Shown: positions 25,066 through 25,281, counted from the stretch's first letter. The stretch is 64,000 nt of DNA from an uncultured Clostridia bacterium (GCA_934130975.1 CAKOYU010000006.1:14372-78371); one strand, 5' to 3'. The notes: generated by a model from the letters alone, not told the origin. Made by a program: numbers and translations.

Positions 25066-25281
25066 TTACAATTCACAGGGTATTAACAACTACATTTAGA
25101 AATTTAATAATATATTGTTTTTTTATACCTTGATGTCGCAATCTGCATATAAAAGATACTAGTATGTAGATTGCTCCATATCGCATTCGCTACGCTCATT
25201 TGGTCGCTTACGCGGTATTACAAAAACAATATATTATTAAATTTCTAAAATCTATATAATTTGGCTGTGAATTGTAACAGT
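25066..25281 (+). repeat. MITE-like palindromic repeat family, copy 2 (most complete: 14-bp TIRs GTTACAATTCACAG, flanked by 8-bp direct duplication AGTCGAAA)
   Basis: Left end AGTCGAAA|GTTACAATTCACAG... and right end ...CTGTGAATTGTAAC|AGTCGAAA. The conserved core is shared with the other three copies. Confidence 0.85.

Follow-up and report, generated by a model that had tools for sequence, protein, structure and literature searches.

Prokaryotic MITEs, non-autonomous transposons such as MITEAba12, the QMITEs of Coxiella and the cyanobacterial Nezha, are shorter than 500 bp, AT-rich, intergenic and non-coding, with short terminal inverted repeats, duplications in the young copies, a stable stem-loop and variation between strains (PMC10969869). 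The same traits are found in a repeat, here called E, with four copies in a 64,000-nt stretch of DNA (hereafter the window) from an uncultured Clostridia bacterium (GCA_934130975.1 CAKOYU010000006.1:14372-78371). The copy located between an HD-domain gene and an SNF2 helicase gene (copy 2, or c2) is very probably a young member of a ~210-nt MITE family of gut Clostridia; the family has not been described before, though the kind of element is well known. At 214 nt and with no transposase gene, the element falls under the limit of about 500 bp applied to MITEs, and it combines terminal inverted repeats and a target duplication of fixed length (8 bp) with many dispersed copies and presence or absence between related genomes.

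Anatomy and distribution of the element

A sequence-only reading of the window had described perfect 14-bp terminal inverted repeats, an 8-mer repeated directly at both ends and an inverted-repeat context at positions 25066-25281, limits that denote the same feature but are one to a few bases off. The locus contains the following features:

24405-24968, HD-domain gene
24973-25008, plus strand, intrinsic terminator of the HD-domain gene, intact and conserved in the empty alleles, its T-run directly followed by an inserted copy of a second repeat family (F)
25017-25064, plus strand, left part of the F remnant, 94% identical to the F consensus over 51 nt
25057-25064, unstranded, left 8-bp target-site duplication AGTCGAAA, also the final 8 nt of the left F part
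25065-25278, plus strand, c2 (element E), 214 nt, between the HD-domain and SNF2 genes
25065-25078, plus strand, left terminal inverted repeat GTTACAATTCACAG, the family consensus end
25079-25094, plus strand, left variable spacer, mean column identity 0.63, the lowest within the element
25095 to about 25125, plus strand, left arm of the inner inverted repeat, column identity 0.93
25125-25218, plus strand, asymmetric GC-rich core of ~95 nt, holding helices P1 and P2
25125-25129 and 25214-25218, P1 helix of the core, ATACC paired with GGTAT
25138-25144 and 25168-25174, P2 hairpin of the core, GCAATCT paired with AGATTGC around a variable loop
25175-25213, near-invariant 3' half of the core, TCCATATCGCATTCGCTnnGCTCATTTGGTCGCTTACGCG
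25219-25249, plus strand, right arm of the inner inverted repeat, column identity 0.91
25250-25264, plus strand, right variable spacer, column identity 0.70
25265-25278, minus strand, right terminal inverted repeat CTGTGAATTGTAAC, the exact complement of GTTACAATTCACAG
25279-25286, unstranded, right 8-bp target-site duplication AGTCGAAA, also the first 8 nt of the right F part
25279-25317, plus strand, right part of the F remnant, with a 26-nt internal deletion and ending ...TTATTTGTTCT like other F copies
25319-25347, plus strand, promoter of the SNF2 gene (TTGTCA, 17 nt, TATAAT), intact and conserved in all alleles
25378-28710, SNF2 helicase gene, bacterial

Both the end repeats and the directly repeated octamer are borne out by the junctions, which read ...CTCCTTTT AGTCGAAA / GTTACAATTCACAG ... 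CTGTGAATTGTAAC / AGTCGAAA ACTCAAATTG, and the inverted-repeat context is accounted for by flanks that are the two stems (GAGATTTTC / GAAAACTC) of an F-family hairpin. The end repeat is perfect for exactly 14 bp, with a G/G mismatch at position 15, and the 31-nt arms of the inner inverted repeat are 97% complementary. Both strands of c2 fold as a single long hairpin (-78.9 / -79.3 kcal/mol, z about -11). The 14-mer end has four matches in the window at two or fewer mismatches (0.49 expected; a count of four was reached in 0 of 100 shuffles), belonging to both ends of c2, to c1 and to c4, while the ends of c3 are too degraded to match. The 214-nt element contains no ORF of 60 aa or longer. A short frame spotted by eye on the minus strand of the core was considered as a small protein and rejected, as the length of the P2 loop differs by 1, 2 or 3 nt between copies and the frame is lost.

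A 22-nt pattern from the core served to search for copies elsewhere. All 48 exact core matches belong to gut MAGs labelled 'uncultured Clostridia bacterium' from Hadza and Nepal samples (one genome per species), with 22 in CAKPHD, 17 in CAKPDZ and one to three in each of seven other assemblies; the CAKPDZ MAG is 97.9% identical to the window and belongs to the same species. All four copies in the window are the same ~210-nt repeat, intergenic and on the plus strand, and intergenic placement extends to all 52 E copies examined, with no strong bias in orientation relative to the neighbouring genes (++ 15, -- 11, -+ 11, +- 3). At one locus (L057, 6230-7000) a short non-coding region that contains promoter-like sequences is framed by two opposed E copies, ~560 nt from each other.

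The host clade is one of uncultured, AT-rich, small-genome human-gut Clostridia. At the gathering threshold, Rfam matches in the whole window were limited to OLE (ornate, large, extremophilic) RNA and one tRNA; the OLE RNA is full-length (14893-15445, plus strand, 320 bits), which fits an anaerobic Firmicute host. The window also holds two tandem repeats, both probably within coding sequence (61751-62302, period 69 nt, at least six overlapping copies; 13823-13948, 21 nt, about five copies), and a 138-nt segment duplicated at 91% identity (7272-7438, 9536-9702 and 9710-9753), with the shared motif GCCCAAAGTGGGACT occurring three times near the sole tRNA gene of the window (tRNA-Leu, 9735-9817, minus strand). 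In the E region itself, Rfam searches at E-values up to 10 returned chance-level matches only (19 bits or less), BLAST against plasmid and phage records gave no match to E, viral contigs gave no core match and a literature search for the literal E sequences found no paper. Eight viral matches to a shorter, degenerate core motif were set aside as chance matches in GC-rich phages.

Empty alleles, the interrupted F repeat and target duplications

Syntenic relatives, retrieved as gut-metagenome contigs by exact look-up of the ribosomal protein S12 of the window, fall into two groups at the HD-SNF2 locus. The copy is carried unchanged in L021 (100% identical over 14.7 kb), L023 (99.9%) and L016 (99.5%), while the spacer between the two genes is 105 nt, versus 409 nt in the window, in L017, L019 and L022, which are 97.8-98% identical and of the same species. 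The spacer is short too in L014 and L015 (about 90-93%) and in L018 (about 86-94%), with a range of 105-108 nt over the six empty alleles, in which the terminator leads directly into the promoter (...GCTTTATTTAT|ATTGTCAAAA...). As the short form is common to three lineages, it represents the ancestral state and the lineage of the window has gained DNA; c2 is polymorphic among strains of one species, present in some and absent in others. Among homologues of the HD protein at ~90% identity the spacers are also short, with intergenic DNA too diverged to define an empty site; the closest homologue (P0003, 94% identity) is not syntenic, and exact look-up of the 187-aa HD protein returned no record.

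The gained DNA amounts to ~304 nt and comprises the F remnant, E and the duplication. A simple 222-nt indel had been expected and is ruled out by this length, and both AGTCGAAA octamers lie within the gained segment. The sequence-only reading had predicted an empty site with a single AGTCGAAA between the HD-domain and SNF2 genes in a related genome; empty alleles do exist at ~98% identity, but they contain no AGTCGAAA, because E sits in a truncated F copy that is itself absent there (the left F part is missing from L017, L014 and L018). The predicted empty site proved instead to be part of F, which resolves the doubt that the octamer was a true duplication.

Removal of E and one octamer from c2 predicts an uninterrupted target, CTCCTTTTAGTCGAAAACTCAAA, that has matches in at least 120 human-gut metagenome contigs, and at least 120 F copies carry a single, uninterrupted AGTCGAAA exactly at the insertion point. 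When E and one AGTCGAAA are taken out, window positions 25017-25317 align colinearly with the F copies, and the parts sum to 301 nt (48 nt of left F, 214 nt of E and 39 nt of right F), the remainder up to 304 nt being due to differences in the length of the terminator T-run. Members of F are ~135-145 nt long, with three large hairpins, a small one and two alternative 3' hairpins; they have no Rfam match, occur with many different flanks and sometimes twice per contig, and usually stand directly after a terminator T-run, F itself being an insertion in the lineage of the window. F hairpin 2 has its 5' stem, GAGATTTTC, in the left F part, and the AGTCGAAA at which E is inserted lies at the boundary between the loop and the 3' stem of this hairpin. 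Outside the window (25017-25064 and 25279-25317), F copies were located in L071-L190, and uninterrupted F is also found in genomes that carry E, namely L037 (3747-3885, with the predicted target) and L034 (5064-5207). An F copy thus lies between terminator and promoter, and E entered F at AGTCGAAA, duplicating 8 bp. As to the order of events, E may have been inserted into F at the HD-SNF2 locus, or an F already bearing E may have moved there.

The footprint extends across the family. The E ends were located in every copy and the octamers directly outside them compared, and recognisable ends (four or fewer mismatches each) were present in 18 copies at 12 independent loci. Direct flank repeats of at least 7/8 occur exactly at the ends in seven of these 12 loci: 8/8 in c2 (AGTCGAAA), the L028/L039 orthologues (TAATATTT) and L037 (AAAAATTT), and 7/8 in L024, L027/L063, L062 and L049. 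Among 132 control pairings of mismatched left and right flanks, 8/8 never occurred and at least 7/8 was reached in 0.8%, while a shift of the register by one base reduces the loci at 7/8 or better from seven to one. The seven clear target octamers differ in sequence, are AT-rich and are often partly palindromic, and small hairpins or palindromes surround the targets of L024, L062 and L049, based on flanks read by eye.

No duplication is found in the other five loci, including c1 and c4, nor in c3, whose ends are too degraded for it to be counted among the 12, and the ends are degraded where the duplication is missing. In prokaryotic MITEs, direct repeats are reported from younger copies and fade as the copies age (PMC10969869), a pattern by which the loss of the duplication in c1, c3 and c4 fits an older age. 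The expectation that other genomic copies would show 8-bp duplications consequently holds at seven of 12 loci and fails for the three further copies in the window. The earlier proposal of transposase-type insertion and mobility is nonetheless upheld by the absence of c2 from some strains, the single octamer in F copies and the duplications at seven of 12 loci.

Older copies, the conserved core and rival explanations

The three remaining copies in the window are:

20571-20779, plus strand, c1, old, left end degraded, flanks matching at 4/8
28740-28947, plus strand, c3, old, ends degraded, flanks matching at 1/8, in the SNF2-trmFO spacer
46387-46595, plus strand, c4, old, flanks matching at 2/8, in the loop of a terminator hairpin between convergent yitT-like and gerAC-like genes

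In these copies, as in L033, the flanks are inverted rather than direct. The orthologue of c1 in a sister species (L066, 3060-3130, minus strand) has kept both ends and the right inner arm; its core is missing, apparently deleted between the inner arms. The c3 copy lies inside a 249-nt insert relative to L014 (28725-28973), with copy-specific outer inverted arms, and a perfect 12-bp direct repeat, TTTAACTTAAAC, stands on either side of the insert (28713-28724 and 28974-28985), which does not fit a model of insertion with an 8-bp stagger.

Orthologues of c4, retrieved through a protein, are available at three distances. The copy is fixed in the species of the window and present in the L203 lineage (93% protein identity), and is absent from L206, in which the convergent genes overlap, and from L209; both c3 and c4 are missing in more distant relatives. 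The empty site of L209 is a 28-nt spacer made up of a terminator hairpin (AAAGTACACT-loop-AGTGTACTTT) with stems homologous to the inverted flanks of c4 in the window (AAAAATGCATTT / AAATGTATTTT), and this homology indicates that a terminator was already in place when E was inserted into its loop. Compared with L203, c4 in the window differs at about nine of 33 outer-arm positions, while within one genome the outer arms are near-perfectly complementary (33/33 in L203, 35/35 in L036), and one of the paired arm changes at c4 has its counterpart in the final codon of the upstream gene, where the change is synonymous. The outer arms thus change together, either through selection on the hairpin or through correction of one arm against the other. 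That one flank of c4 was copied onto the other was rejected as the principal origin of the inverted flanks, since the right flank is orthologous to the right terminator stem of the E-free L209; given the paired changes, arm-to-arm correction may have occurred at this locus.

In two further comparisons (L028 versus L039/L058, and L049 versus L069), orthologous E copies have the whole interior in opposite orientation. Despite the flipped interior, the orthologues have in common their flanks, their duplication and a variant of the end, which is locus-specific in L028 and L039; this implies either an inversion with the short terminal repeats as its limits or an excision followed by re-insertion into that site.

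Across the copies, mean column identity is 0.49 in the flanks, 0.63-0.70 in the spacers, 0.74-0.80 in the terminal repeats, 0.91-0.93 in the inner arms and 0.97-0.98 in the core, the last value being in part a matter of ascertainment as the copies were found by a 22-nt core pattern. The pair of c4 orthologues is free of this bias: identity is 88.7% and 84.7% in the flanking genes, 63-67% in the outer arms, 87-91% in the inner arms and 94.7% in the core, with all of the core differences located in the P2 loop or at two known variable bases. Ends that are less conserved than the interior are the reverse of what is expected under constraint from transposition only.

In five species (L034, L045, L052, L056 and L067) the core stands, at a conserved site, directly downstream of a 647-aa ORF, which we take to be a putative thrS from a reading of its N-terminal sequence only; in four of the five an ABC-transporter gene follows the core, and in L067 the core is flipped with respect to the genes. 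The arms at this site are unrelated in sequence to the E arms yet still complementary, and in four of the five MAGs no other exact core match was found. With a covariance model of the core, one distant homologue was recovered (L154, 2615-2735, 57 bits, E-value about 1e-9 to 1e-11), in which P1 reads ATGCC/GGCAT in place of ATACC/GGTAT and P2 reads GCATCCTTC/GAAGGATGC in place of GCAATCT/AGATTGC, with the unpaired motifs TTGnTGTCGCA and TCGC..CGCT..GCTC..TCGCT.ACGCGG kept. This homologue has inner and outer inverted arms of its own (2560-2790) and is located after a terminator, between convergent genes, on an unrelated gut contig. Within the core, 97.6% of the paired positions are standard pairs and six pairs are changed on both sides, a result reached in 0 of 500 shuffles and compared with 21-46% for slid pairing controls; these counts rest on a model-fitted alignment, and covariation in a DNA palindrome is no proof of RNA. 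Single changes to pairs are equally often of the G.U and the C.A type and so indicate no transcribed strand, which, together with the absence of a strong orientation bias and the flipped interiors, argues against a strand-specific RNA role of the core. An informal comparison of the core with known consensus sites for Spo0A, CcpA, CodY and Rex gave no convincing fit.

The best-surviving alternative, although it is considered unlikely, holds that E is mainly a functional, structured nucleic-acid module (a small RNA, a single-stranded-DNA hairpin signal or a protein-binding site), copied to various places in the genome and kept for its use to the host rather than as a selfish element, to which the ends and the octamer are secondary. 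It would explain why the core and inner arms exceed the ends in conservation (0.97 and 0.92 versus 0.74-0.80), why the c4 core is unchanged outside the P2 loop and two variable bases between genomes with genes at 85-89% and outer arms at 63-67% identity, why the core recurs after the 647-aa ORF with different but complementary arms and why L154 retains P1 and P2 by compensatory changes along with the unpaired motifs. The precise 8-bp duplications and the strain-level presence and absence nevertheless require transposition, and a host-kept module sits poorly with the lack of a strong orientation bias, the interior flipped between L028 and L039, the equal numbers of G.U- and C.A-type changes, an L066 orthologue entirely without the core and the lack of an Rfam match; gene conversion among copies could, moreover, mimic selection.

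That the core is under some selected function is a tentative suggestion. A combined reading, in which the core, made up of helix P1, hairpin P2 with its free loop and an invariant run of TCGC-type motifs, is a functional structured module (RNA, a single-stranded DNA signal or a protein-binding site) that is kept up by its host clade, became mobile in one lineage via acquired transposon ends and represents selected, non-coding MITE cargo, is conceivable though doubtful; on this view, arms that evolve jointly and entry into terminator loops would both contribute to the presentation of the module.

Far less probable is a REP/REPIN-like palindrome spread by a RAYT (HUH-type, IS200/IS605-like) acting on single-stranded hairpins. 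The hallmarks of REPs and REPINs are an invariant GTAG at the foot of the palindrome and an associated RAYT gene, and neither REPINs nor IS200/IS605 derivatives are known to have target duplications or terminal inverted repeats. E is reminiscent of these repeats in its long foldback, its strictly intergenic placement, its long persistence at conserved loci with arms that evolve together and the GTAG in the P2 stem of most copies; however, it has both a target duplication and terminal inverted repeats, its GTAG varies (GTTG, GAAG), it is two to three times the usual size of a REPIN and no RAYT gene was seen in the searched part of the genomes. Palindromes of the IS200/IS605 group have asymmetric ends and insert 3' of a fixed tetra- or pentanucleotide, and an element derived from this group was rejected on the symmetric 14-bp end repeats of E, its 8-bp duplication and its seven differing target octamers. 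A Correia or RUP type with TA duplication was likewise rejected, as the duplications of E are 8 bp long and differ in sequence between loci. That the 8-bp repeat is a coincidence beside a regulatory palindrome that never moved merits practically no credence: c1, c3 and c4 lack a duplication and short repeats are common in an AT-rich region, but an 8/8 match was seen in 0 of 132 control pairings, at least 120 F copies have the octamer once, strains 98% identical to the window lack E and six further independent loci bear the same footprint.

Proposed mechanism, significance and comparison with known repeats

Under the transposon interpretation, E would be inserted in trans by a DDE-type transposase that makes an 8-bp staggered cut in the target, and the likely source of the enzyme would be an insertion sequence with the same ends as E. 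The one MITE hallmark not found for E is its cognate autonomous element: neither such an element nor a transposase with matching ends turned up in the window or ~1.6 Mb of related loci, searched for end-like sequences, alone or in pairs, and for long repeats inside MAGs. The element appears to favour targets that are AT-rich and partly palindromic, hairpin loops and terminators among them. As E folds back on itself over its whole length, a terminator stem with E in its loop should still be able to close, so that such insertions would be tolerated. After insertion the ends would decay while the core and inner arms are kept, and the two outer arms would change jointly, by hairpin selection or by correction of one arm against the other.

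E represents a recently active MITE family, with a clean before-and-after footprint, in gut Clostridia known mainly from Hadza and Nepali metagenomes. The features that go beyond the routine are the conserved, covarying core, the co-evolving arms, the apparent preference for hairpin loops and two further undescribed repeat families. Assemblies break at repeats of this kind, which also yield markers at the strain level and can affect terminators as well as promoters. If the core is functional, bacteria would offer in E a clear example of a transposon that spreads a non-coding module under selection, and the core would be a defined sequence to seek in gut metatranscriptomes.

The third family, H, consists of ~200-nt repeats with inverted arms (AAGAAAGACTTTAAATATAAGCTTT...) around a conserved core (...GAATGAAATGACGAATGTGCATGGAGAAATTTTAGAAATTC...GAGTTCACGATAGTGGAAAGGACCCATAAAAC...) and was observed at L026, L040 (two), L051 (two), L056 (two), L068, L024, L076 and L186; it has no Rfam match at the gathering threshold in L040, L051 and L056. 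These small Clostridia genomes thus carry at least three unrelated hairpin repeat families (E, F and H), nested or adjoining.

Several groups of described repeats resemble E in kind. The insertion-sequence families that duplicate 8 bp include IS6/IS26, ISL3, IS256, IS66 and IS1595, and E is like them in its 8-bp duplication and short terminal inverted repeats; the E end GTTACAATTCACAG bears no resemblance to the IS26-type end GGCACTGTTGCAAA and is not known to resemble other ends. Correia elements of Neisseria, with 26-bp ends, a TA duplication and an IHF site, the enterobacterial ERIC sequences and the Yersinia palindromes are, like E, long imperfect palindromes of 100-200 nt that are located in intergenic regions or at 3' ends and may form long hairpins in transcripts, a likeness of kind. 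In contrast to Correia elements, E ends in 14-bp repeats, duplicates 8 bp and contains a core that is GC-rich and asymmetric. RUP duplicates TA via an IS630-type enzyme, compared with the 8 bp of E, and BOX is modular and without terminal inverted repeats.

The small pneumococcal repeats BOX, RUP and SPRITE cluster and insert into one another (PMC10969869). E has no sequence relationship with them and resembles them in being nested in F, in the four E copies that adjoin family H and in its link to terminator-like hairpins. Set against MITEAba12, the QMITEs and Nezha, E differs in having no known parent insertion sequence, in an interior that is better conserved than the ends and in a core that is GC-rich, within an AT-rich genome, and that related species likewise carry at a conserved site.
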